DNA of 64,000 nucleotides from positions 78,626 through 142,625 of IMG/VR virus record IMGVR_UViG_3300045988_070909; one strand, written 5' to 3'. Each line of letters begins with the position of its first letter. The stretch's first letter is position 1. The translations under genes and the position numbers were made by a program. This DNA comes from a virus. Below the pieces are notes generated by a model. That model did not search any database. It saw nothing but the letters and a program-made list of their open reading frames with translations, and was not told where the DNA came from. Shown here piece by piece: positions 49,022-64,000 of the stretch.

Positions 49022-49231
49022 TGAAAAAGTTTATTTTAAGCCTGGGGATTGTGTTACTTTACGGTAGTGTAAAGTAATGCATTCTCCAGTTATGCTTGTT
49101 CTAAGAAGAGAAGCAGCTTTATTTAAAGATAACCAAGGATTACGAGGATTAAGATGTAGATGGTTTACTGATTCCGGACTTATGTAGGAAGCAGTGTTTA
49201 ATACTAAGGATTTAATTAAAGTAGAAGAGTA

Positions 49232-50545
49232 ATGGCTAAAGTGTAGTTTGACCCTGAATTGATGCGTAATATCAAAATTATTTACGGAGATGCGGACTTA
49301 GATGAGAGAACCTTGAGGTAGTTGCATTAGACTTGGGCAACTAATCCAGACATTATTAGAAGAACCGCACAATAGAAAATGCCTAAGTTACAAGAGGCAT
49401 ATTTTGATGCTCCAGAAATGCCTTCATTACCCACAAGATTAGAACCTCTTCCTACTGCTGAAATAGCTTAGGATGATTTAAGAGGTGTTAAAGATTTTAA
49501 GACAGCTTTTAGGGCTGCTAGAGAGAGAGGACTAAAACAGTTTATGTGGGGAAATTCTGTATATACTACAGACTTAGGACAGCCTTCAAGTAAGCCTAAA
49601 CAACCTTCTACCATTCAGATTCCTTAGTCAGATACTTAGATTAGTATAGAAGCTCCAGACCTAATTGCTACAACAAAAGGAACTACTTGGGGTAGAGGAA
49701 TACCAACTATTACAGGAGGCAGTTAGCCAGCTAGTGAATAGACAAGAGCCGAGTAGCCTTCAAGTAAGCCTAAAGTAAATCCTGTACAGGCCACTATCAG
49801 TAGATATACTATGGGAAAGACAGTACAAGGAGGAGATTTTGGGATACATAGGGGGTTATAGAGATTATTTAATTATCTTGGAGATGTATGGAATTCTAGA
49901 AAATCAGAAGCTAAACCATTAACATTATCTCCGGGACATACAACTAAATTTCAACAAGGAGGAACAATGAATAATCAACAAGAATTACAAAAAGCGTTTG
50001 TGGCATATTTAATATAGGATGCGCAGTCATAGGGAGTTCAGATATAGTCTGAACAGGATTTACAAGCTTATGTTGAACAATTAGGTGAAGACGGCATTAA
50101 AGCTAAGTATCAGGAATTTATGCAGAAAATGCAAGGAGGAGTAATGGCTAGGCTTGGAGCTAAGCTTGAGTATTATAAGAAGCTAAAAGGAGTATGTCCA
50201 GAAGGAGAAGAGCTTGTATATTTTAAGCAAGGCGGTAGAATCTGTAAAGCTTGCCAGAAAGCACAAAAAGGAACTAAAGTTACTAAGAAAGCTAATGAAG
50301 TTGATAAATTTAAGGCAGGAAGAGCTTAGTATAAGAAAGATATGAAATCTGCTAGAGACGAAGCCTCAAGAGATTCTATATTAATCAATAAATACAATGA
50401 TTAGGAAACTATGGCCAATAAAGGACATAAGGGTAATTTCCAGGGAGGAAAATGGGTTCCTGACAGAAAACAATATGCTAAGAAAGACGCTTGTGGCTCA
50501 AAAATGAAAGTCAATAAGTGCGGTTCCAAAATGAAAAAGAAATAA
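49232..50545 (+). CDS. TAG-recoded hypothetical (virion?) protein
   Basis: Frame open from ATG 49232 to TAA 50543-50545 only if about 17 in-frame TAGs are sense; includes track fragment 50120-50329. Confidence 0.5.
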
Positions 50546-50582
50546 TAAGATTATCTAATGTGTATGATAATGATTAATGATT

Positions 50583-51143
50583 ATGAATGTATTTAACTAT
50601 AACACTTTAACTAAATAGCTAGAAATAAATGAACCAGAGATATTACTAGTTAAGGAATTTAAGGCTTTAATCTAGAGGGATAAATCTGCAGAAAAGGATA
50701 GAGCTACTAGAGAACTATCTTACATTTATTTAGCTATAGACTGGAAAAGTCCGTACAGTTAGTATTCGGAACATGAACGACATGACGAAGCTATTAGTGA
50801 TTCTGGATTGACAGAGTCAGAATTTAATGACCCTATATTTAGAGAAGCTTGTAGGAAATACAGAGCGTTACAAGATTCAAACAAGTCAATAAAATTACTA
50901 GAAGCAGCTAAAAGAGCTGCAGACTAGTTTATTGATTATTTCGAAACTATTGTAGATTTAAATGAGCGTGATAATAACGGCAAGCCAGTATTCCAGGCTG
51001 AAAAAGTAATGAAGGAAATGGCTACTCTTCACAAAGTTCATGAAGAACTCATAACACTAGAAGACTAGGTTAAGAAAGAACTTACTGAACAATCTACTGT
51101 TAGAGCTGGAGCTGTGGATGGTTTTGACCCAGGAGACTTTTAA
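50583..51143 (+). CDS. TAG-recoded hypothetical protein
   Basis: ATG 50583 to TAA 51141-51143 with 5 in-frame TAGs. Confidence 0.45.
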
Positions 51144-51145
51144 TT

Positions 51146-53518
51146 ATGCCAAGAAAAAAGATATTACCTGAAGAAATATAGAATATTGTAGATTAGGTAA
51201 GAGAAAAAGAATAGAAAGAGGATGCTAAAGAAGCTAGAGAATTAGTATAGAAAATAAGAGAGGAAAGGGTCAGAAATTCTGACTATTGGGATGTTAAAAT
51301 AGGAGATAAAATAGAAGTATTTGACCCTACCTTATCTTATGAAATAACTGGATACAGACCTATTGACGAAACTCATGGATTGGACTTTAATCCAGATTGG
51401 TTTACCGAGACTAGGGAAGTATATAAACGAACTGGTCAATACTGTCCCTACCTTAGAGATAGTAAGCGGTACAACGAATTTTGGAAAGAGCAATATAGAA
51501 GATGTAAGTATGGAATGACAGTTAATGGATACACCATTACTGGAGATAATTACTTCTTCTTAAATTTCTATTAGTTACCTACTATTGACTAGCAGAAAGC
51601 CTCTGGTGAGGGTACTGATAATGACTTCCCAATATTCTTTGCATCACATTATATGTTCTTTCATTATCTATAGATGGCTAGAGTGCTACACAAGCACGCA
51701 GCTTTAATGAAAGCTCGTTCTATTGGATTCTCTGAAATAAACGCCTCTCTTTCTGCTCGTATGTACTCTGTTATTAGAAGAAGTAGGGTTATGATTACTT
51801 GCTTTAATGATACCTTCCTTAAGGGTACCTTTAGTAAGTTTGATAATGCTCTTACATTCTTAAATACCTGTACTGGAGGAGGATTTTTTAAATTGCGACT
51901 TATTGACCAGGATTTGAGAAAGAAATCAGGTAAACAAATCAAAATAAATGGTTAGTTTGAAGACGTAGGATTTAAATCTGAGGTTGTAGCAATTAACGGA
52001 GCTAAACCATCTAATATTCGTGGAGACCGTGTAGATTTATTAATATATGATGAAGCTGGTTCCTGGCCTGGACTTGATACCGCTGTGGTACAAGGTCAAG
52101 AACTTTGTGAAGTTCAAGGTATGCCTCGTGGAACAATGTTGTTTGGAGGTACTGGCGGTGATATGGGTGCTCCTCTAGAGGGCTTAAAAAAGATTTACTA
52201 TAATCCAAGAGCATATAAGATTCTTCCATTTAGACATAATTGGACTTAGGATGGGACTACTATAGAGAGTGGATTCTTTATTCCATACTTTATACAATCT
52301 TTGAATCCAGAATTTATGGACCACAGAGGAGTATGTAATACTGTGGAATATAAGAAATTCTTATAGGAGGAGCGAGATAATCTGTTAGCTGTACCAGAAG
52401 ACTACCTAAAGAAATGCGCTGAACGTTGTTGGAATGCAGAAGAAGCATTTAATCTAGAAGGTGTTAATAAGTTTAATAAAATTTTAGTTGCCGAATAGAT
52501 AGCTAATATAAGACTTAAACAAATTGGCCCAAGACCCGAATGTGGTTATATTGATTATTTTTACAAAAATAATAAACATACTTAGGATAATATTGATGGT
52601 TTTAAATGGATTCCTAACAGCAATGGCAAAGTAAAAATTCTAGAGCATCCAATATGGTCTGACTTATATAAAGAACAAATGGAAAAGCTTAGATAGGAGG
52701 CAGAAGATAATGGCTAGGATTTTGAAGTTCCAGTTTATAAAGAGATGCGAGACTTGTATGTAGCAGGTATAGACGGTATTGATATTGGAGCGAATTAGAC
52801 TTCTAAGGAAACCAGAGACCCGTCTGATTTCTGCATAATGATTAAGAAACGTGCGTTTGGTATGAATGACCCTCAGTATGTTGCCATGTACAAGGATAGA
52901 CCTGGAGACATCAGAGAAGCCTATAAAATAGCTATGTGTTTAGCTCGCTATTATAATTGTAAAATAAATATAGAAGCTACTCGTATGGGTATGGTTACTT
53001 GGGCTAGAGAAAAAGGATGCCTTAACTATTTTATGAAGCGCCCAAGAGCTACTCTAACTGACGTTAGAAATGGAACTACTAAATAGTATGGAACTCCTGC
53101 TACAAAAACTATAATCGAATAGCATACTGATTTAACAGCCGCCTTTATAGAAGACTATTGCCATACTATATGGTTCGAAGAAATGCTAGAATAGTTCACT
53201 GCATATAATGATGAAAATAAGGGTAAGTATGATATTGTAGCCGCTGTAGGTATGACTGAGTTAGCAGACCAAGAGCTATCAGGAAGACAGCCCATACTTG
53301 TGGAGAAAGAAGTTGAATAGTTCCAAGATTTTGGTTACTATTACGACGAGAGAGGAATTAAAAGATTTGGAGTTATTCCAACTAAGAAAACTCCTGAACT
53401 TAATATGCAAAGAAACGAATATGATGACCCATACAGAGTTGAAACAAGTGATCCTAGAATATATGAGGGACTTGTACAAAATGGAGTATATAGGCGGACT
53501 AGATATTGAGAGTTTAGA
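51146..53518 (+). CDS. terL: terminase large subunit (TerL), TAG-recoded
   Basis: Frame from ATG 51146 to TGA 53516-53518 with more than 15 in-frame TAGs; ATPase-like LLIYDEAGSW segment and an RNase-H-like nuclease part (DPSDFCIMIK...INIEATRMG...). Confidence 0.7.
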
Positions 53519-53759
53519 CCCAGTTGGGTATAAAGTCTCTTTTAACTTTGATAGGTCAGAAATGCCATTAGTAATAATAGCAGATTTACCAGACGAAGAA
53601 TTTCTGCCATTTATTAAGGAAGAATTAAGAAGTAGGAAGTTACAAAGAGTTAAGTATTATAACGCTACTAAACTTCCTCCAGAACAACATAATTTATGTT
53701 ATGAAAGAGAAGGAATTGATAGACAAGACAAACGAGGCTATTGCGGAACTTGTATATGA
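53421..53759 (+). CDS. small hypothetical protein overlapping the TerL end and the portal start
   Basis: 113-aa frame MMTHTELKQ... ending TGA 53757-53759. Confidence 0.3.
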   Translation: MMTHTELKQVILEYMRDLYKMEYIGGLDIESLDPVGYKVSFNFDRSEMPLVIIADLPDEEFLPFIKEELRSRKLQRVKYYNATKLPPEQHNLCYEREGIDRQDKRGYCGTCI

Positions 53760-55872
53760 TAAGTATGAGTTACAGAAAGCTTATAATTATTATAATGGTA
53801 AAAGAGATCCTGAATAGTTCCGTTATCTGGAAGAAAACTTCGGAATAGGTAGCCCCACTTCGGTAGAGTTTACGCCTTTATTAAAGAAACACGTAGATGC
53901 TCTAGTTGGAGAATATTTAGGAACTCCTATACTTCCGAAAATTTCTTGCAAAGATTCAGATACTATCAGTAATATAACAAGAGAAAAATAGCTAGAAATA
54001 ACCAAGGGAATAGTAAAGTTTTTGAAAGACCATTTAAGTAATTCAATTCTTAAGTTTATTGATGGCAAGGATATTACTGATAAAGCTGTAAAGACTTAGT
54101 TAGATAAAATTATATAGGATATTGACCAATCCTTTATTTCTCAATATGAAATTGCAGCTTAGAATATAGTACATTATATTATGCAATCCAGAGAAACCGA
54201 TTTAATTACTAAGTTACGTTAGTTACTAACAGACTTATTAATTACTGGTTATACATTCTTTAGAGTGAAATCATCGGCTTCTGGAACTAATATTGAAATA
54301 GAGGTATTAAACCCACTTAATACATTTGTTGATAGAAATCCAGAATCTCCATATGTAAGGAACTCATATAGAGTTGTAGTAAGAAAGTGGATGAGTAAGA
54401 GTTAGATTTTAGCTAAATATGGCAAAGAAATATCTAGAGAAGATTTAAGAAGACTAAAAGATGAATGGCGAGCTGATGATTCAGCTGCTGTTTATAGAAG
54501 AGTATATGGAGATACTTGTACAGTAGTAAATGAAGATTAGAATCATGAAACCATTCCCGGCTATCCAGACAATGAATATAGTGCTCATAGGTTCTAGTTA
54601 ATCCCAGTCTATGATGTTGAATGGATTGAAACAGATGATGATTTTGTGATGTAGAGATACAATACTATCAGAATAGGAGAAGAGATATATATTCTTAGAG
54701 GATTAGACAAGACTGTTATGAGGTCTAAAGATAATCCCAACTTCTGTTCTTTATCGGTAAATGGAGTATATTTCTTAAATCGCTCTTAGTAGCCTTATTC
54801 TCTTATATTAAAATGTGCACATCTGTAGGATAGATACGACTTATTAAACTATTATAGAGATAATCTAATAGCTAATAGTGGTACTGCTGGAGTTATTATG
54901 GATATGTCTCTGTTGCCTACCAACTTAGGAGTTAAATGGCCAGAACGAGTACAAAAATGGTTAGCTTATAAAAAAGGTGGTATCATGTGGATAGACTCAA
55001 GCCAAGAAGGTAGGAATGACGGACAGCAAGCTCCAAACTAGATATATAACGGATTTGATGATACCTTAAAAGCATAGGCTGTATAGGCTATTGAATTAGC
55101 TATTCAATCAGTAGAACAAACTACATCATCAATAACTGGAGTATTTAGGGAACGACTTAACGGTATAGAAACTAGAGATGCAGTTACTAATATTAAGTAG
55201 GGAGTAGCTAACTCGTATATAGTAACTAAGCACTATTTTTAGCAGATGGATTTAATAACCTGCGAGATACTACTAGATAGTCTTAATTAGGCTAAAGTTA
55301 CTTATAAGAAAGGATTAACTGGAACTATTATACTTGGGGATAAATATCAACAGATATTTACAGCACTTCCTGAGTATTTTACTGTTACTGACTACGATAT
55401 TCATATTACTGCTAGTTCAGAAGTGATGGAAGATCTATAGACTATAAAAGCAATCATTCCAGAGTTCGTAAAAAGTCAACAGATGGATCCAGATATTATT
55501 TTTGAGGCTCTTACATCTAAGAGTCTGACAGACCTTAAATATAAGGTTAAGAAAGCTGTTCAAGTTCGCAAAGAGGAAAATAATCAGCTTCAGCAACTAC
55601 AAGAAAAATTAGAAGAAACCTCTCAATAGGCTTAGTAGTTACAGCAAGAATTATAGAAAGCTCAGCAAAAGATTGAAAGCTTAGATGAATAGAGACTGGG
55701 ATTAGAATAGTAGAAGATGCAGTTAGAATATAAAGTTAACTGGCTTAAAGCTCAGTCTGATTCTACTTATAAAGATAGACAAATGGATATTGAAGAAAAA
55801 AGAACTGAAATAGAGTTGGCTTAGCTTCATGATGGAAATCCATATAATGACAAAATAAGACAAATACATTAA
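53701..55872 (+). CDS. portal protein (putative), TAG-recoded
   Basis: ~723-codon frame from ATG 53701 to TAA 55870-55872 with about 30 in-frame TAGs; size and position after TerL. Confidence 0.6.
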
Positions 55873-55873
55873 T

Positions 55874-56602
55874 ATGGCAACTGGAACAATTGTATACAAC
55901 AAAGATTAGTAGTAGATTTATCCTATCTCTGATGGGACAGTAATTATAAGTAATGCTTCCGGTTCTAAATCAAATGTAGAAGACGACTTAAAAAAATTAT
56001 TTAAGTAGGTATCAGATTTATCCGGTTCAAGTGAAGCAGTTAATAGTATTATTATTAAAATACATTATCTCCCTGCTAATACTGCCAATGAATCTGAAAT
56101 AAAACTATCAAGTAAGTAGTGGTCTGATACTTTTGAGCTTCCAACAGAAGAGAATCCATATATATGGAAAAGAACTAAATTTACTTTTTAGGGAGCTGAT
56201 GAATCATAGGGAACTACTATCTATGAAATAGTAGCGAGTGAGGTCTCTACTATTATATAGACTATATATACTAGAACCAAGGGAATAACACCAGTTATAG
56301 AGTATAAACAAAAAACGAATGAAAAAGGAGATCCTCTCTATATGGATTCTGACGGGAGAGAAACCACAGAAGTAACCTCTACTAAAGCCTATGACTATAA
56401 CTACTACTGGAATGGACAGCCCTCCTCTGGGATTGATAAATTACCTCCTACTCCAGATGGATAGTCTTATACCTGGACTGACTATCCACAAGATATTAGT
56501 TTATCTTTTACTTCTGTTTTTATGTCTAGACGTATAAAGCAATCTGGAAAGTGGGGACCTTTTTCTACACCAGCTCAATACGGTCAATGGCCTAACACTT
56601 AA
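55874..56602 (+). CDS. TAG-recoded hypothetical structural protein
   Basis: ATG 55874 to TAA 56600-56602 read codon by codon; 8 in-frame TAGs. Confidence 0.5.
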
Positions 56603-56614
56603 TATTATTGCAAT

Positions 56615-57346
56615 ATGGAATTTAGTATTGATATACATACCCAAATTAATGGGGAAATACTGATAGAAGATTTCTCAAAAGAATATGGCTAGTATATTGA
56701 TGAAGATGTAGAGGTAGTAACTTCTTACGACTCCTATAAGTATAGTGAGAGTGCTACCTTGAATACTATCATCAAAGTTAGTATAAGCGATGCTACTCTG
56801 ATAGATGTCCTACTTAATGACCATACAGAAGACTTAGACTCGTGTATGTTTAAGGTCAAGGATGATGGTTATTACGTAGTAGACCATATCATTATTCCTA
56901 ATATGAAATGGTATGAAAATTCATCGGACGAATACAAGGAATACTATGAGACTATCTATGTTACTGATGGAGAAAAATTATATAAAGAAGTAGAAGGTAA
57001 GCTAGAAGAGTGTACAGTTAAAGAAGTTCTTGAACGAAACATAGAAGGAACTACTATAAAAAAATGTAAGGTAGATGTTTTCTTTACAGGAAACTTGTAG
57101 TAGTGTTACATTAATTATTGTAAGAAACTCTTTGATGCTTTACTAAATAAGTGTCTAACTAGAGATTAGGAAGCAGATATATTTGCTCGAGATTTCATAT
57201 GGATGACTCTTAACATTATAGATTATTTAATATGCTTTAAACAATTCATGGAGGCTGAAAGATTACTAGCGATGTTCCGTACCTGTGGAGGATTCTGTGA
57301 CAATCACCACCATGGACATAAACGTATAGGTTGTGGATGCTCTTAA
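56615..57346 (+). CDS. TAG-recoded hypothetical protein (C-terminal CGGFCDNHHHGHKRIGCGC)
   Basis: ATG 56615 to TAA 57344-57346; includes track fragment 56759-57100. Confidence 0.5.
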
Positions 57347-57543
57347 GAGAAAGGCTATTAAAAGGTATGAGGATTTTCTAAGAAAACTCAAAAAGGGATA
57401 TAAACCAGATTATCAAGATATTCTTAATCTAATTTGTTTTATTAACCTACCTGTAAGACTAGATAATCACGAATTTATTAAATAGCAATTATTAAACTAG
57501 AATGATACAGTCTATTTACACTTCGGTAAGTAACGCAGATATA

Positions 57544-59075
57544 GTGCCTTGTGGTAAAAAGGGTAAGCCTATAAAATGTGAGCCTATACCTCTCTTAAGA
57601 AATAACTATTTAGGAGAATATAGGACAGAACTAGAAAAAGCTAAAGTAAGAAAGAACTTAGGTATTGCTGATGAGTAGAGTCTATTGTGGGGAAACATTA
57701 GTGGAACCATAGAACTGCAAAAAGACCTAGTATAGTATATAGAACAAAAATGGACCTATACTAGTGACGTTGCAGAAGGCATTAATACTGTGAAGGATGC
57801 CCTAGACTATGCCCTATACTTTATTAGCGAATATGAATCTAATACAGAAGCAATAGAAGAACTGAAAGTCGATATAAGCAATATTAGAACTTCTATATCT
57901 GTATTGAAGGAGGATTTACAGCGAGAAATTGATACTAATAGAAAAGGAATTAATAATCTATCTGAAGAAATAGTAAAAATCAATGAAGCTATAGTTGAGT
58001 TGAACAATGCTATTGAGAATATAGATGTTGATAAAAACATTCTTAATTGGATTAAGAATAGTCTCCAAAATTCCAAAACTATAGAACTAAAGGAAAATAA
58101 TTCCTTAGAGGTGATTTTATCTACTTAGGAAGATAATGCTATTCATTTAATAGAATAGGAGATTGGAGAGGAAACCTCTTCTATTATCCTTCCAGGTATC
58201 TATGTTAAGAATCTTGAACCTGCTCTAGAAGAAACAAAGAAAGAAGTATAGAAAACTTAGGAAGCACAACAAGAGACAAATACTAAAGTAGAAGCTAATA
58301 CTGAAAGTATTACTAATATACAAACTAACTTAGAAACTATAGCTACTTATTAGACGGAACTCCCAGATGATACTACTTCAACAGTAATTGAAGGGACTAC
58401 AGTAGAGAAACTTAAGGGCAAGCCCTTTAATGAAATTATTGATACTTTACTGTTTCCAACAGTAGTTAGAGATTTAGTATACCCATAGCTTTATTATAGT
58501 TTTACTTCTCAAATAGTAGAAGTGGGAACTGCTTTATTAACTCCTACACTTACATTTATAAAGAATGATGCTGGAGAAGAAACTGACAGACGAGAAACTA
58601 TTACTTATAACAGTTCTCCTGTAGAGTCTGATACATATAATTCTATTGGTACTTATACTCACTCTGGTACAGTGAGTTATGCCGCTGGAGAATATTTGAT
58701 AAATAATAAAGGAGAAATTACAGATAAGAGAGTAGAAGCTGGTTCTATTTCCGCTACCGCTTAGGTAGTAGCCACATATCCTTGGTATTCTGGTAATACT
58801 GATGGTGTGATTAAATAGGCGCTAGTTCCTTTTGGACAATCGTCTGGAACTATCACATTTTCACTAAGTGGTAAGGCTATTATAAAATTGCCAGGAAGTA
58901 ACACATAGTTAAATTCATTTACCGTAGATGGAGGACTTGGATATTTAAATGTAGACCTAAGTGGTTGGGAAACATCTACCGAGTAGATAAATGGATTTAC
59001 TTACAAGGTATGGACTAAGAAAGATACTTACTCCTCAGCATTGCCACATCAAATTAACTTTATTCTATCACAATA
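57544..59075 (+). CDS. TAG-recoded structural protein (start uncertain)
   Basis: Frame open from ~57526 to TAA 59073-59075 through track fragments 57790-58128 and 58522-58764; GTG 57544 is the first plausible start. Confidence 0.4.
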
Positions 59076-60914
59076 ATGGCATTTAAATATACAGGTGATG
59101 CTACCTTAGGTGTCGCTTTAACCGTAGAAACTCCGAAGCCTCTCGATAATAGAACAGTCGTTAATAACTTAGACGAACTTTATTCTATTCCAGAGAAGTA
59201 TGCTTATCAAGGTATGACCGTTGCTAACATAGATAACGGAAATATTTATATGCTGATTGATAAGTCTAAGATTAAATACAAGGAAGGATGGAAAGCATCC
59301 TATGAATCTATCTAGATAATCACCTGTACAGAGGCTGAATATAAAGAATGGTCTGAGAATACTACAGACGATTTTAGGCCCATAGATGAAAGTAAACCAT
59401 ATCTTCATGCTGAGACATATTATTATATATATGAGGATAGCTTAGACGATAACTAGTTTTACCTATCCGCGGAATGGGGGAAAAAGATAGAAGAGCAATT
59501 AAAATAGAAGGCTCTTAATACTACTGTAGTATAGATTAGAACAGACTTAGATAACACTATTGCTAGCCTATCAGATTATGCTACACTGGAAGAATTAACT
59601 ACTAATTATGTCTCTAACGATTCTTTAGCTCTATCACTGACTAAGTATTATACTAAGGAAGAAACAGACGATATTTTCGTTACTAAAGAAAGTCTTAGAG
59701 GAGAGGGAATGGAAGGAGATGATTTTGTCTTCGTTACAAAGAAAGAATATGAGGAAGATTAGTAGGCCATCCAAGACGAGTTAGATAAAACTCTTAAGGT
59801 AGATGGAGATGGTTCCTTAGAAAGCATCACTGTTGGATAGATAAAATCTCCTGTAGTAGAGGGAGAGAGCTAGCTAGTAGTAGACGTTAGGTCTGAAGGA
59901 TTATTTATAGGTGAAGATTAGATTGCTACTGAATCGGATATTCCGAACTTAGTAACATTAACTGAAGAAGAGTATCTAAAGTTAGTAGAGGAAGGGACGG
60001 TAGAGCCTGATACATATTACTATGTATATGACGTCACAAATGATGCAAAGGTTTATATTACTAAGGAATATTTGGATTAGAATTATCATACTACCAATCA
60101 ATATCAGTCCTGGGTTGCTACAAATTATTACTCCAAGAAGTAGATTGATGAAATAGTTCAAGGTTTGCAAAAACTTGGAAACTACGTTACTACAGAAGAT
60201 ATTAAGGCTTATTATACTATTTAGCAGGTTGATGACAAATTTCTTACTAAGGAAAATGCTCAGTCTACTTATGCTACTCAATAGTCATTATCTGATTTAT
60301 CAGATTAGATAGCCGAAGATTACGTAACAAAAGAAAGTTTAAGGGGAGACTCTCCTGAAACCGGAGATGATGATTTCATATTTGTTACCTAGAAAAAATA
60401 TCAGGATGATTAGGCTGCTGCTGCTAAAGAATTTAGCACTGAGCTTTTGAAATCTACATCAGTAGAAACTTCTGATATTACTATTTAGAAAATTGGAGAA
60501 AAAGAAGTACAATAGGGAACAACTGGAGAACCTTCTGAGGAAACAGGAACTGAGCAAGTTATTGAGAGTTCTGTTAAACTTACCACAGAAGATAACAGGC
60601 TATTTGCTGGAGGCAAGCAAGTTGCTATTACTGAAGAAGTACCAAAACTTGTATGCTTACCACAAGCTGATTATGATGACCTAGTTGAGAATAGTAAGAC
60701 TGAAGAAGATACTTATTATTGCACCTATGGAGAAAAAGATTTACAAGATACTGGATATGTTAGAAGCGAATATCTTATAGAGAGATACTACACCAAAGCT
60801 GAGGTAGAAGAACTAATTAGCTAGGCCGTAGCCGAATTGTAGAAAAAGATAGACGCTTTATAGCCAGGTTCTAGTGTAGAGGTAGATGGAGAAAATGAAC
60901 AATTAATATTTTAA
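59076..60914 (+). CDS. tail-fibre-like protein with internal repeats, TAG-recoded
   Basis: ATG 59076 to TAA 60912-60914; repeated YVTKESLRG-DDFIFVT-KEY units; about 25 in-frame TAGs. Confidence 0.55.
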
Positions 60915-60918
60915 ACAA

Positions 60919-61131
60919 TATGGGAACAATTTATATTGAAGGACAGTTTAAGAGTTCTGCCAAACCAGTAAAAGTTGTTGGAGGAAGTATAGGAGGAGGC
61001 TCTGGAGTAGACTAGGAAGTTCTCAAGAACTATGCTACTAAAGCAGAATTGTAGAAGGCTGTTGAGGACCTAACTGCTTCCATAGAGGGAATAGATCACG
61101 ATGTAGTTGGTGAAACTTTAATAATACAATG
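60919..61131 (+). CDS. small TAG-recoded protein
   Basis: MGTIYIEGQFK... through 2 TAGs to TGA 61129-61131. Confidence 0.35.
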
Positions 61132-61133
61132 AT

Positions 61134-62970
61134 ATGGCAGCAATCAAATCTATAAAGGTTGGGGAAACCACATACGATTTAAAAGCTACTTACGATGGTG
61201 CTGGAAATGTTATAGATACGACATATGCCAAAGCTAATGCAATTCCAACTAAAACTTCTTAGTTACAGAATGATAGTGGATATTTGACTGAGCATTAGGA
61301 TATTAGTGAATTAGCTACTAAGGGTGAGCTTGAAGGCAAAGTAGATAAGGAGTTAGGAAAGGGACTTTCTGAAGCCAATTATACTGAAACTGAGAAGGAA
61401 AAGTTAAGTACTATAGCTAATAATGCTAATAATTATGTACACCCAACTACTTCTGGAAATAAACATATTCCATCTGGAGGAGCGTCTGGATAGATGCTAG
61501 TTTTCTCAGCAGATGGTACTGCTAAATGGGCAGATTCAAGTTCTAAGCTAGAAGAGCAATTTACAGCACTAAATGAGGCTTGGGAAGAATTGTAGAAGGC
61601 ACAACAAAAGCTTGATAAGTAGGTTACTGAGCTAAATAGTAATATGGATTTATATTCCTATGGAGTAGAATGGGATGTTACAGTAGCATCTCCGGAACTT
61701 ACTAGAATAGGTAATCCTTTGTTGCATAAATCTCTTCCTATTCAGTCAGCGTATAGAGGTTGTGTAGCAAACAATGATGTAGTAAATTACTATCTGTTTC
61801 CAGATGACTGGTCTTATAAAGAAGACGGCGAAACTCCATCTGTCTTAGATGGAACTGATGGAACAGTAAGAGTTAATACTCCTAAATTTTATGGAAAATC
61901 TGGCAGCGATGGAAACAAAAGATGGGTTAGAACTTCTACTGTCAAAATTGATGATTCATGGGTAGAAATTCCTGAACTATTAATAGATGCATACAGAAGT
62001 ACAGTTGATACCACAGTCTCCGCAACTCCAAAAGCTGTATCAGTAGTTAATACTACTACTGCATTTAGAGGTGGAGGAAATAGAGCTAACTACGATGATT
62101 ATCTAACTACAGAATTAGAAACTAAGGATATATTCAGAAGTGATTTAGGAAAGCCTAGAACTAATATTTCTAGAGCTACTATGAGAACATATGCAACAAA
62201 TGCTGGTTCAGAATTGCTATGCTATGAATATTACAAATGGATATTCTACTGGAATTATGTCATTGAATATGCTAATTTTAATTCTTAGGCTGCATATAAT
62301 GCAGAGTTAACTGCAGATGGATATCATCAAGGAGGTTTAGGATCTGGAGTTACAGATTGGGCTAACGCAGCTACAAGTTGGTCAGGGTATAATGCAACAT
62401 ATCCACTTACACCTTGTGGTTACTGCAATGAACTTGGTAACTTCACTGGAGTAAAAGATTTAGTTATTCCAGAATGTACAGCTCAAGATGGCACAAATAC
62501 AGTAGCAACTCATACATTTAAAGTACCTCGCTGGAGAGGATTCGATAATCCGTTTGGAGACATTTGGACTAACCTGGACGGAGTAGTTATAGTGAAAGCA
62601 GCTGCTAATGAGATTAGCACTGTCTATACAACTACTAACATATCGGAATTTACAGACGTAGTTGGAGAGAAAACCGTTGCAGGATACGAAGTAGCATCGG
62701 ATGGTTATATTAAGGCATTTGACTTAGGTGAAACCGCTGAAATAATTCCATCCGCTGTTGGAGGAAGTGCTACTACTTATATTTGCGATTACCATTACTG
62801 CAACGCAAACAGCACAGCGCTTCGCACGCTGCGGGTGGGCGGCGACGCGCTCGCCGTCGGCGTTCTCGATCCACGCAGGCCCTGCGGGTCTCAGCTGTTT
62901 CTTTTCTTTCTTTGGCGTCGACAATGCCTCTTCCACTGTCGGGATCAGGACTCTGAATAGAGTATCTTAA
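61134..62970 (+). CDS. DGR target: tail-fibre/receptor-binding-like protein with C-terminal VR1 (TAG-recoded; apparent frameshift inside the VR)
   Basis: Frame 0 runs from ATG 61134 through track ORFs 61644-62288 and 62592-62960; VR1 lies in the last ~40 codons; the AAY-register continuation ends at TAA 62968-62970. Confidence 0.6.
62838..62943 (+). repeat. DGR variable repeat VR1 (contains a ~19-nt insertion relative to the template repeat)
   Basis: GC-rich island; the 3' ~60 nt align to the template repeat with mismatches almost only at template adenines (one G/A exception). Confidence 0.75.
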
Positions 62971-63057
62971 GATATACAATATAAAAATCGATTTAGATGA
63001 TAAATCGTAGGATATTACTTCTAAAAACCGTTGATTGGCAAAAAAGTACTGCTAGTA

Positions 63058-63144
63058 GGCAGCAACGCGAATAATGGCAGCAATGCAGGTCTCAGCTATT
63101 TCAATTCTAACAATGACGTCAGCAATGCCAATTCCAATGTCGAG
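63058..63144 (+). repeat. DGR template repeat (TR)
   Basis: A-rich non-coding repeat upstream of the RT gene; its in-register translation is Asn-codon rich (GSNANNGSNAGLSYFNSNNDVSNANSNVE). Confidence 0.85.
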
Positions 63145-63287
63145 TTATTATATATTTAGAAACATTTTATTATTTTTTTTTAGTTTGCTAAGTAATATCC
63201 TTGCCTCTAGGCAAAAGATAACGTAGTGTTGAATGAAGGGTGTTAGTAGGTTAATTCTCGAACGCTTCCGATGAAATATATAAAAAA

Positions 63288-64000
63288 TTGAAACGTGTAG
63301 GATATTTGCACGAGAAAGTATACGCTGAAGATAACATCGAACTAGCTGACGATAAAGCCAGAAGAAATAAGTCTATTAGATGTGGAATCAAGCAGCATGA
63401 TAAGAATAGATTAAAAGAAAATAAGGAATTATCCGATAAGTTAAGGGATTTGATTTATCAACCCTCTGAATATAGTACCTTTATAATATACGAACCTAAA
63501 GAAAGATTAATCTTTAGACTTCCATACTATCCAGATAGAATAACTCACCATGCTATAATGAATATTATGGAGCCTATTTGGACTAGTATATTTATAGACC
63601 AAACATATTCCTCTATACGAAATAGAGGTATTCATAAAGTAGAGTATGATTTGTTTAAGGTGTTATAGAAACATCCAGAAGAAACAAAGTATTGCTTGAA
63701 AATGGATATAAAAAAATTCTATCCTTCTATAACTCACGACATTTTATACGAAATGTTATAGAGAAAGATAAAGGATAAAAAACTATTAAAACTGTTGAAA
63801 GAAATAATTTATTCAGCGAAGGGAGTTCCTATTGGAAATTATCTATCACAATTCTTTGCAAATTTATATCTGACATATTTTGACCACTGGGTAAAAGAGG
63901 AGTTAAAATGTAAGTACTACTTTCGATATGCTGACGATATTGTGATTCTTGGTAATGACAAGAATTATTTGAGAAATGTATTAGTATCTATAAAACTATA
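63288..64000 (+). CDS. DGR-type reverse transcriptase (partial, continues past the window; in-frame TAGs at 63667 and 63757)
   Basis: IGNYLSQFFANLYL (DGR-type [I/V]GxxxSQ motif rather than group-II QGxxxSP) and YADDIVIL catalytic motif; the frame stays open across two TAG codons. Confidence 0.85.

Follow-up and report, generated by a model that had tools for sequence, protein, structure and literature searches.

A predicted avd-less diversity-generating retroelement with two target genes in a TAG-recoded crAss-like phage

Most diversity-generating retroelements (DGRs) encode Avd, which is missing from about a quarter of them, including those of lineage 3. [quoted passage not shown] The DGRs of crAssphage LMMB and ‘lineage 3’ likewise place a tail-fibre target and its variable repeat (VR), with the initiation of mutagenic homing (IMH) site, before the template repeat (TR), with IMH*, and the RT, and lack avd (PMC7290462; Wu et al. 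2018, PMC5758913). The absence of avd is typical both of these ‘lineage 3’ crAss-like DGRs (PMC7290462) and of most Zeta crAss-like ones (PMC12386605), and phage DGRs with two targets are already known (PMC10743442). Here we analyse a locus of this kind in a 64,000-nt stretch of viral DNA (positions 78,626 to 142,625 of IMG/VR record IMGVR_UViG_3300045988_070909), hereafter the window, whose own coordinates are used throughout.

We interpret the element, with a probability of about 0.9, as an avd-less (‘lineage 3’, target-TR-RT) DGR that closes the late module of structural genes in a TAG-recoded, Zeta-type crAss-like phage of ~185 kb. An earlier note, made from the sequence alone, had proposed a DGR cassette at 62838-64000, and all four of its elements lay where it had put them. 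On the plus strand, a tail-fibre-like gene (target 1; 61134-62984 as assembled, 1.85 kb) carries VR1 (62828-62945) and is followed by the TR (63048-63146), a 141-nt spacer (63147-63287) and the RT gene (63288-64000), which begins with a TTG start and is cut by the window end after its first 237 codons. A second variable repeat, VR2 (34629-34723), lies on the minus strand within target gene 2 (34510-35070). Judged from the sequence, all the defining DGR features that can be tested in this way appear to be present; Avd was not found, as in the nearest published relatives. A single TR serves both VRs, with VR1 forming the C-terminal ~35 codons of the fibre and VR2 lying in a 186-aa protein.

The comparison with the Zeta phages extends to the genome. 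As a group, Zeta crAss-like phages are characterised by a crAss-type terminase and portal, a genome of 155-190 kb that includes a tRNA array, and recoding of a stop codon together with a suppressor tRNA. Published Zeta genomes with amber codons in the RT gene span about 182-189 kb and carry 24-27 tRNAs, including tRNA(CTA) (PMC12386605); the window alone carries 26, CTA included, and contigs of relatives measured 177-193 kb. The Zeta RT has 414 aa, amber codons and the GxxxSQ motif, and the Zeta target is a tail fibre with a C-terminal VR and no accompanying avd (PMC12386605); the layout is the same here, and the RT ORF of relatives spans about 403-424 codons with 4 TAGs. The nearest RTs were those of crAss-like phages (52-59% identity), and the crAssphage LMMB RT was 56% identical over 99% of its length. 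TerL gave a similar picture: among the matches listed, the GenBank phage records, apart from unannotated ‘Bacteriophage sp.’, were crAss-like (25-29% identity). TerL, the tRNA array and the recoding together point to a Zeta-type crAss-like gut phage of ~185 kb as the host. In contrast to crAssphage LMMB and lineage 3, the element here is carried by a TAG-recoded phage of about twice the size, and has a different RT C-terminal extension and two targets. The RT has at least 528 relatives in IMG/VR, the closest of which, among the matches listed, came from the contigs of 177-193 kb. Some source contigs of the relatives (L123, L125, L129) exceed the ~185 kb genome, at 270, 282, 378 and 484 kb, the last from GCA_041331915.1; these may be concatemers, mis-joins or something integrated.

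Because its layout and lineage match those of published crAss-like DGRs, including the amber-recoded Zeta elements, the cassette itself is not new. It is ordinary for gut crAss-like phages, and its value is as a clean and very widespread example; what is new here is the family of the second, remote target and the fact that VR1 is broken in this assembly.

The A-rich repeat reported in the earlier note proved to be real. The pattern of non-adenine bases in TR positions 63085-63142 had three matches in the window (the TR itself, VR1 and VR2) and none in 100 shuffles. The diversified core of the TR (63061-63137) contains 10 AAY codons in the TR frame, as expected from the proposal that the repeat is designed to avoid stops. 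The TR was constant, and both VRs differed between related genomes at these ten AAY codons, which cannot mutate to stop codons. Specifically, an 87-nt TR could be located in 26 relatives (RT identity 87-99%); 19 of them had the identical TR, and every VR1 differed. Among 72 unique VR copies (38 VR1 and 34 VR2), differences were confined almost entirely to TR adenines. The entropy of VR1 was 1.26 bits at TR adenines and 0.07 at other bases (p = 8e-14), and that of VR2 was 1.23 and 0.03 bits, respectively (p = 2e-17). The mismatch rate in the 26 collinear VR1 copies was 0.74 at A and <=0.02 at C, G and T; for the family as a whole it was 0.74-0.76 at A. The same target-VR-TR-RT layout was found in 28 more distant relatives (RT 68-78% identical), for 31 distinct TRs overall; over a 60-nt seed, 24 of these relatives had zero non-A mismatches, three had one and a single locus (L049) had five.

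All four bases were found at AAY adenines in the 72 unique VRs (A 35%, G 31%, T 23%, C 11%), and the outcome at an adenine varied with the base that follows it. TR adenines before A were randomised, and 55% of those before T were kept. Of those before G, 94% had become G in the VR (n = 414; 65 unique TR/VR pairs), rising to 97% at third codon positions; these third-position sites are mostly synonymous, and protein-level selection cannot explain the outcome at the synonymous ones. TR AGY codons therefore effectively encode Gly in the VRs. One mid-core adenine, at 63087 (GCA), was G in 69 of the 72 copies and never C or T. For the BPP-1 bRT in E. coli, the 3’ neighbour has been shown to influence adenine misincorporation dominantly (PMC12875486). 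The last TR adenine, 63143 (GTCGAG), was G in all 72 VRs (GTCGGG), a fixed difference of the IMH*/IMH kind. Two TRs had themselves been partly overwritten by VR-like A-to-G/T changes, in L006 (L006:5750-5790; GGCGGCAGCGCG) and L025 (L025:5820-5857; GGCGTCGGCTTTGCCGATTCCATT); this suggests that mutagenised cDNA sometimes homes to the TR itself, or that VR-to-TR conversion takes place.

The visible 237 codons of the RT ORF contain the motifs VPIGNYLSQFFANLY and FRYADDIVILG. They also read as IGNYLSQFFANLY plus YADDIV; IGNYLSQ and YADD are present and the catalytic motifs intact. In-frame TAGs occur at 63666 and 63759, and, as had been noted, the ORF stays open only if both TAGs are sense codons. 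Pfam RVT_1 matched the ORF at 2.8e-18 and BPP-1 Brt at 4.3e-33 (phmmer); for the RT, phrog_1423 matched at 6.6e-113. For the full-length RT of a relative (L001; RT 99% identical), the best PDB match, at E = 4.8e-45, was 8ub7, whose 328-residue chain can be aligned with BPP-1 Brt; the scores were 7e-15 for group II intron RTs and 1e-15 for retron-type RTs. These scores support the grouping of this RT with DGR RTs, and the class check that the earlier note had called for came out in favour of a DGR RT, far ahead of the retron and group II matches.

An RT derived from a group II intron, retron or defence system, next to an ordinary duplication, would be the main competitor, and NCBIfam did return TIGR04416, a group II intron RT/maturase model, as its best match (1.7e-32). 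That match scored 113 bits, well under the 300-bit cut-off, and the families listed were those of group II intron, retron and defence RTs, none of them DGR-specific. The BPP-1 DGR RT was the best solved match by 30 orders of magnitude, and the repeat differs specifically at adenines, a pattern replicated in two targets and about 70 genomes. A group II intron RT/maturase was also rejected on the upstream DNA, which consists of the TR and a spacer rather than intron domains. We regard this alternative as already refuted: where the earlier note had envisaged an RT of group II intron or retron affinity together with a lack of adenine bias, we found a DGR-type RT and adenine-biased mismatches.

The product of target 1 is tail-fibre-like, as had been suggested: the intact copy from L001 matched the tail-protein family phrog_5302 at 3.5e-82. 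Homologues form more than 6500 protein clusters in public data, with a full length of 606 aa. The gene contains 7 in-frame TAGs in the window, and its frame is broken at 62864, leaving the last ~40 residues scrambled. A mechanical repeat search gave a gapless 59-nt match between 62883-62941 and 63084-63142. The full VR1 comprises a 5’ block (62828-62863, corresponding to TR 63048-63083) and a 3’ block (62883-62945, corresponding to TR 63084-63146). The offset to the TR is 19 nt larger for the 5’ block than for the 3’ block, which defines a 19-nt insertion at 62864-62882. The homology of VR1 to an 87-nt TR (63058-63144) given in the earlier note thus stands, and extends to 63048-63146, but it is not gapless. 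The gene boundaries given there, 61134-62970, span 1837 nt, which is not a multiple of three and conceals the frameshift; the assembled ORF stops at 62984. As a result of the insertion, the assembled frame reads ...LRVGGDALAVGVLDPRRPCGSQLFLFF... until this stop, and the TR-collinear ending, ...AGLSCFFSFFGVDNASSTVGIRTLNRVS and a stop codon, lies in another frame. The canonical ending is ...VG(I/F)RTLNRVS; in relatives the gene has 605-607 codons and ends at the equivalent of 62970 with ...VGFRTLNRVS and the stop.

Substitutions within the two blocks were also unusual. In the gapless 3’ block (62883-62945 vs 63084-63146), 14 of 16 differences fell at TR adenines, and in the 5’ block (62828-62864 vs 63048-63084) 12 of 16 did. 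The window VR1 therefore has 26 differences at TR adenines and six elsewhere, of which one is a common polymorphism and five are private. The statement that differences fall almost exclusively at adenines is correct for the family (0.74 at A vs <=0.02 elsewhere) but too strong for this copy.

We give roughly even odds to an assembly artefact, favoured by a GC-rich stretch that is hypervariable and contains internal repeats, as the source of both the insertion and the non-A changes, and rank it above a real dominant allele. The insertion was absent from all relatives examined, which all end ...VGFRTLNRVS, and was not found in IMG/VR or JGI metagenome contigs. A Logan contig that shares the private RT variant of the window (QPSEY) has a normal, collinear VR1. 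No donor for the 19 nt was found, either as an 11-mer match in the window or any fetched locus, or as a clean mapping to the TR. What weakens the artefact explanation is the assembly itself. The window is 100% identical over 6.5 kb to contig k119_59452 (74.8 kb) of ENA ERZ27263542, a name style that suggests a MEGAHIT assembly with final k = 119, and such an assembly should phase a VR of ~100 nt. This source contig was traced by way of the VR2 protein; near VR1, no recorded gene product matches uniquely.

A real, defective fibre allele generated by aberrant retrohoming is the next explanation to consider, appreciably less probable but to be taken seriously. It could arise if, for example, the template was switched or slippage took place at GGCNGCNAYGC repeats inside the VR, and have been caught at high frequency in the sample or in phages relying on other fibres. 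A de Bruijn path at k = 119 across the ~100-nt VR should have read support, and some of the aberrant sequence, CTCGCCGTCGGCGT, can be matched, with a single non-A mismatch, to a TR segment lying downstream, as a template jump would yield. Length changes at the VR1 insertion spot do occur, since VR1 of L127 (ENA ERZ19693131) has an in-frame 18-nt deletion there, between two internal GGCNGCNAYGC repeats; VR2 of L095 has an in-frame 6-nt deletion. Such an allele would nevertheless be unique among more than 70 VR copies, would delete the conserved end of the fibre by its frameshift, and would need inserted bases that lack a donor and five private non-A changes within about 100 nt, against a family rate of <=2% per site. 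Explanations of the VR1 defect other than these two are unlikely.

Damage of this kind could also signal a decaying, inactive relic, in which the defect reflects lost function and the TR/VR similarity is historical. The non-adenine differences and the indel in VR1 are what such decay would leave, and partial or silent DGR cassettes occur in published crAss-like genomes (PMC7290462; PMC12386605). The remainder of the cassette makes this very improbable: the TR is the same as in relatives, the window VR2 is perfectly collinear with zero non-A mismatches, the visible RT is 99% identical to full-length relatives with its catalytic motifs intact, and the TR-RT spacer is undamaged. Because hypervariable VRs can be mis-assembled or truly broken, a single contig is untrustworthy for VR sequence. 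A palindrome at the insertion junction, CGCAGG-C-CCTGCG, was spotted by eye; it explains nothing alone.

VR2 was found by scanning the window with the TR, treating its adenines as wildcards. It aligns collinearly and without indels to TR 63051-63146, and over about 90 nt, the diversified core included, it has no non-A mismatch. It lies 28 kb from the TR, on the opposite strand and in an early, non-recoded module, and is internal to target gene 2, in frame and followed by about 40 residues. The 34 unique VR2 copies in related genomes vary only at TR adenines, and the target 2 gene is conserved in the same phages as the cassette. A strict pattern scan found three copies per complete genome (TR, VR1 and VR2), which indicates two targets. 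The 186-aa product of target 2 has no signal peptide, its gene has no TAG, and it belongs to phrog_11581, a family of unknown function; searches with it gave no Pfam match and no meaningful PDB match. The family comprises 170-220-aa proteins in about 220 clusters at 50% identity (830 protein clusters in public data), with the motif LVGGxAxxGxxxGLGxFxSxxxVG...CxSxEIAxHxSKxFGKLIF; a VR-like motif is conserved in the family. Homology between the two target scaffolds was considered and rejected: hhalign of the two families was limited to 35 VR-encoded residues, and the scaffolds are therefore unrelated. The ORF just upstream of target 2 (35181-35639, minus strand) has the N-terminal motif ITLEQARKWYESGNEDLKKLALAAFSEE common to a target-2 subfamily, lacks a VR-like region, and may be a target-2 paralogue.

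The target 2 family, which lies outside the structural module, seems to serve DGRs as a regular substrate. We tentatively suggest, as an idea more likely wrong than right, that it is an early-expressed, non-virion protein, and that the DGR diversifies an intracellular or envelope-associated host-interaction factor besides the fibre. Three features prompt this suggestion: the gene lacks TAG codons, of which late genes have 2-28; it is located among tRNAs and early genes on the opposite strand; and its stop codon shares bases with the ATG of the next gene, which encodes a signal-peptide/transmembrane protein. An anti-defence binder or a superinfection-exclusion component would then be candidate roles. 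If this suggestion is true, target 2 would represent a new class of DGR variable protein, and its binding partner would reveal what, besides host receptors, such abundant phages keep re-inventing. The published Zeta description mentions a single TR-VR pair and no remote second VR (PMC12386605); by comparison with that description, the locus here differs in having a second VR, in a 186-aa non-fibre protein. Tentaclins likewise use one TR for two functionally different genes, and the role of their second target is unclear. As described, tentaclins have N-terminal C-lectin and Ig domains and are proposed surface binders, whereas target 2 is a 186-aa protein without Ig domains, encoded in an early module 28 kb from the TR.

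The mechanism would follow that of BPP-1. By analogy, the TR and the 141-nt spacer would be transcribed, the RT would copy the TR RNA into cDNA while misreading adenines, and the cDNA would replace homologous VR DNA, the replaced stretch ending at a short sequence rich in G and C, which reads GTCGGG in VRs and GTCGAG in the TR. BPP-1 (mtd-avd-TR-brt) shares with this locus RT homology (4.8e-45), adenine-specific TR-to-VR transfer, the AAY design, a receptor-binding tail-protein target and a TR-RT spacer of similar length (144 nt in BPP-1). It differs in three respects. BPP-1 needs Avd, encoded between mtd and the TR, and none was found here; it diversifies one gene, its bbp36 ‘variable region 2’ being a 330-nt repeat of a different kind; and it uses the standard genetic code, whereas TAG is recoded here.

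The earlier note had reported no avd ORF in the TR-RT spacer, which is borne out: neither the 141-nt spacer nor the interval between VR1 and the TR contains an ORF. Relatives whose RT is 99% identical do not support its idea of an avd past the window end: there, a 129-aa acidic ORF (phrog_11557, unknown function) comes directly after the RT, and an 889-aa protein comes next. For the 129-aa ORF, Pfam and NCBIfam gave no Avd match, and a low-sensitivity, single-sequence phmmer search that compared BPP-1 Avd with every ORF in the window and in three relatives gave nothing (best E 1.8); ~120 kb of the genome lies outside the window and thus outside these searches, the Pfam and NCBIfam ones covering the nearest ORFs. 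The order of tail protein, RT and then a small overlapping ORF is shared by cr7_1 (Suoliviridae) and the relatives here. The 889-aa protein (L001:7633-10299), whose gene has 21 TAGs, shows metallophosphoesterase-like motifs by eye (GD...GNND...GHKH).

The spacer is conserved across the family and is probably a functional analogue of the BPP-1 Sp RNA, positioning and priming cDNA synthesis. Its ends pair in a closing AU stem (63147-63157 with 63274-63284), which has one compensatory UA-to-CG change among 13 aligned relatives. Between them lie a hairpin, TTGCC-TCTA-GGCAA (63201-63214), and a block, GTGTTAGTAGG (63240-63250), that is invariant across the same 13 relatives; the two G that precede it (63238-63239) vary in some of them. 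A further hairpin, CGATTTA-GATGA-TAAATCG (62989-63007, plus strand), lies between the target stop codon and the TR. Both of its arms co-change in the L011/L019-L023 group (CAGTTTA...TAAACTG), giving two compensatory pairs, and it is not conserved in more distant relatives. It may terminate the target gene or form the TR transcript’s 5’ edge.

Several observations, besides the assembler argument given above for VR1, weigh against our interpretation of the locus. The RT C-terminus is known from relatives only, that of the window’s own genome being beyond its end. The case for DGR activity is built on variation between genomes rather than on heterogeneity within a sample. The IMH-like assignment rests on one fixed A/G difference. 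After VR1 (at 62950-62963) and after VR2 comes a 5-bp hairpin with a loop of 4 nt, which is conserved neither in distant relatives nor, for VR2, in about a third of the copies; with conservation this patchy, we rejected as unproven a role for the hairpin after VR1 as a conserved target-recognition element. Finally, a C-type-lectin fold was left without support for the variable proteins: AlphaFold2 models of the two targets, built from near-identical alignments, had pLDDT of 49.6 and 30.1; Pfam searches of both gave nothing; and PDB profile searches gave no match for alignments A1 and A2, while A4, a diverse target-2 alignment of 56 sequences at 25-62% identity, gave a single match at chance level (colicin Ib, E 0.16). 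AlphaFold3 models have shown C-lectin domains in Zeta crAss-like tail-fibre targets (PMC12386605).

The window has about 36% GC and a strand switch near 44 kb. Reading TAG as sense raised the long-ORF coverage of 44-64 kb from 0.17 to 0.80 and hardly altered the minus-strand half; the recoding of TAG is therefore limited to the late module of structural genes (terminase, portal, fibres). Consistent with this, in-frame TAGs (2-28 per gene) were found only in the plus-strand late module (49220-64000), and most long minus-strand genes (1-44000) had none. The tRNA array (12926-44549) comprises 26 genes, 25 of them in the minus-strand half, and ARAGORN identified a suppressor tRNA with anticodon CTA at 44477-44549 on the plus strand. 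Where the window RT has its two TAGs, 79 relatives carried TAG, CAA/CAG or other sense codons, and at 4 of 6 RT sites with TAG in some relatives the window has CAA/CAG. The tRNA(CTA) was most similar to the phage tRNA-Gln(TTG) (52/73 identical). Given these CAA/CAG codons at equivalent RT positions and the resemblance to tRNA-Gln, TAG is a sense codon, most likely read as Gln.

Since 48 of the 79 related RT genes lack any TAG, one DGR family spans recoded and non-recoded phages. Annotation with the standard code splits the RT and the target at TAGs, so such DGRs are easily missed. As both the RT and target 1 contain TAG, they would be made only once tRNA(CTA) is expressed, and diversification would be expected late in infection. 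The array also includes a tRNA with anticodon TTA (41376-41446, minus strand), which would read TAA, yet TAA is evidently the main late-gene stop.

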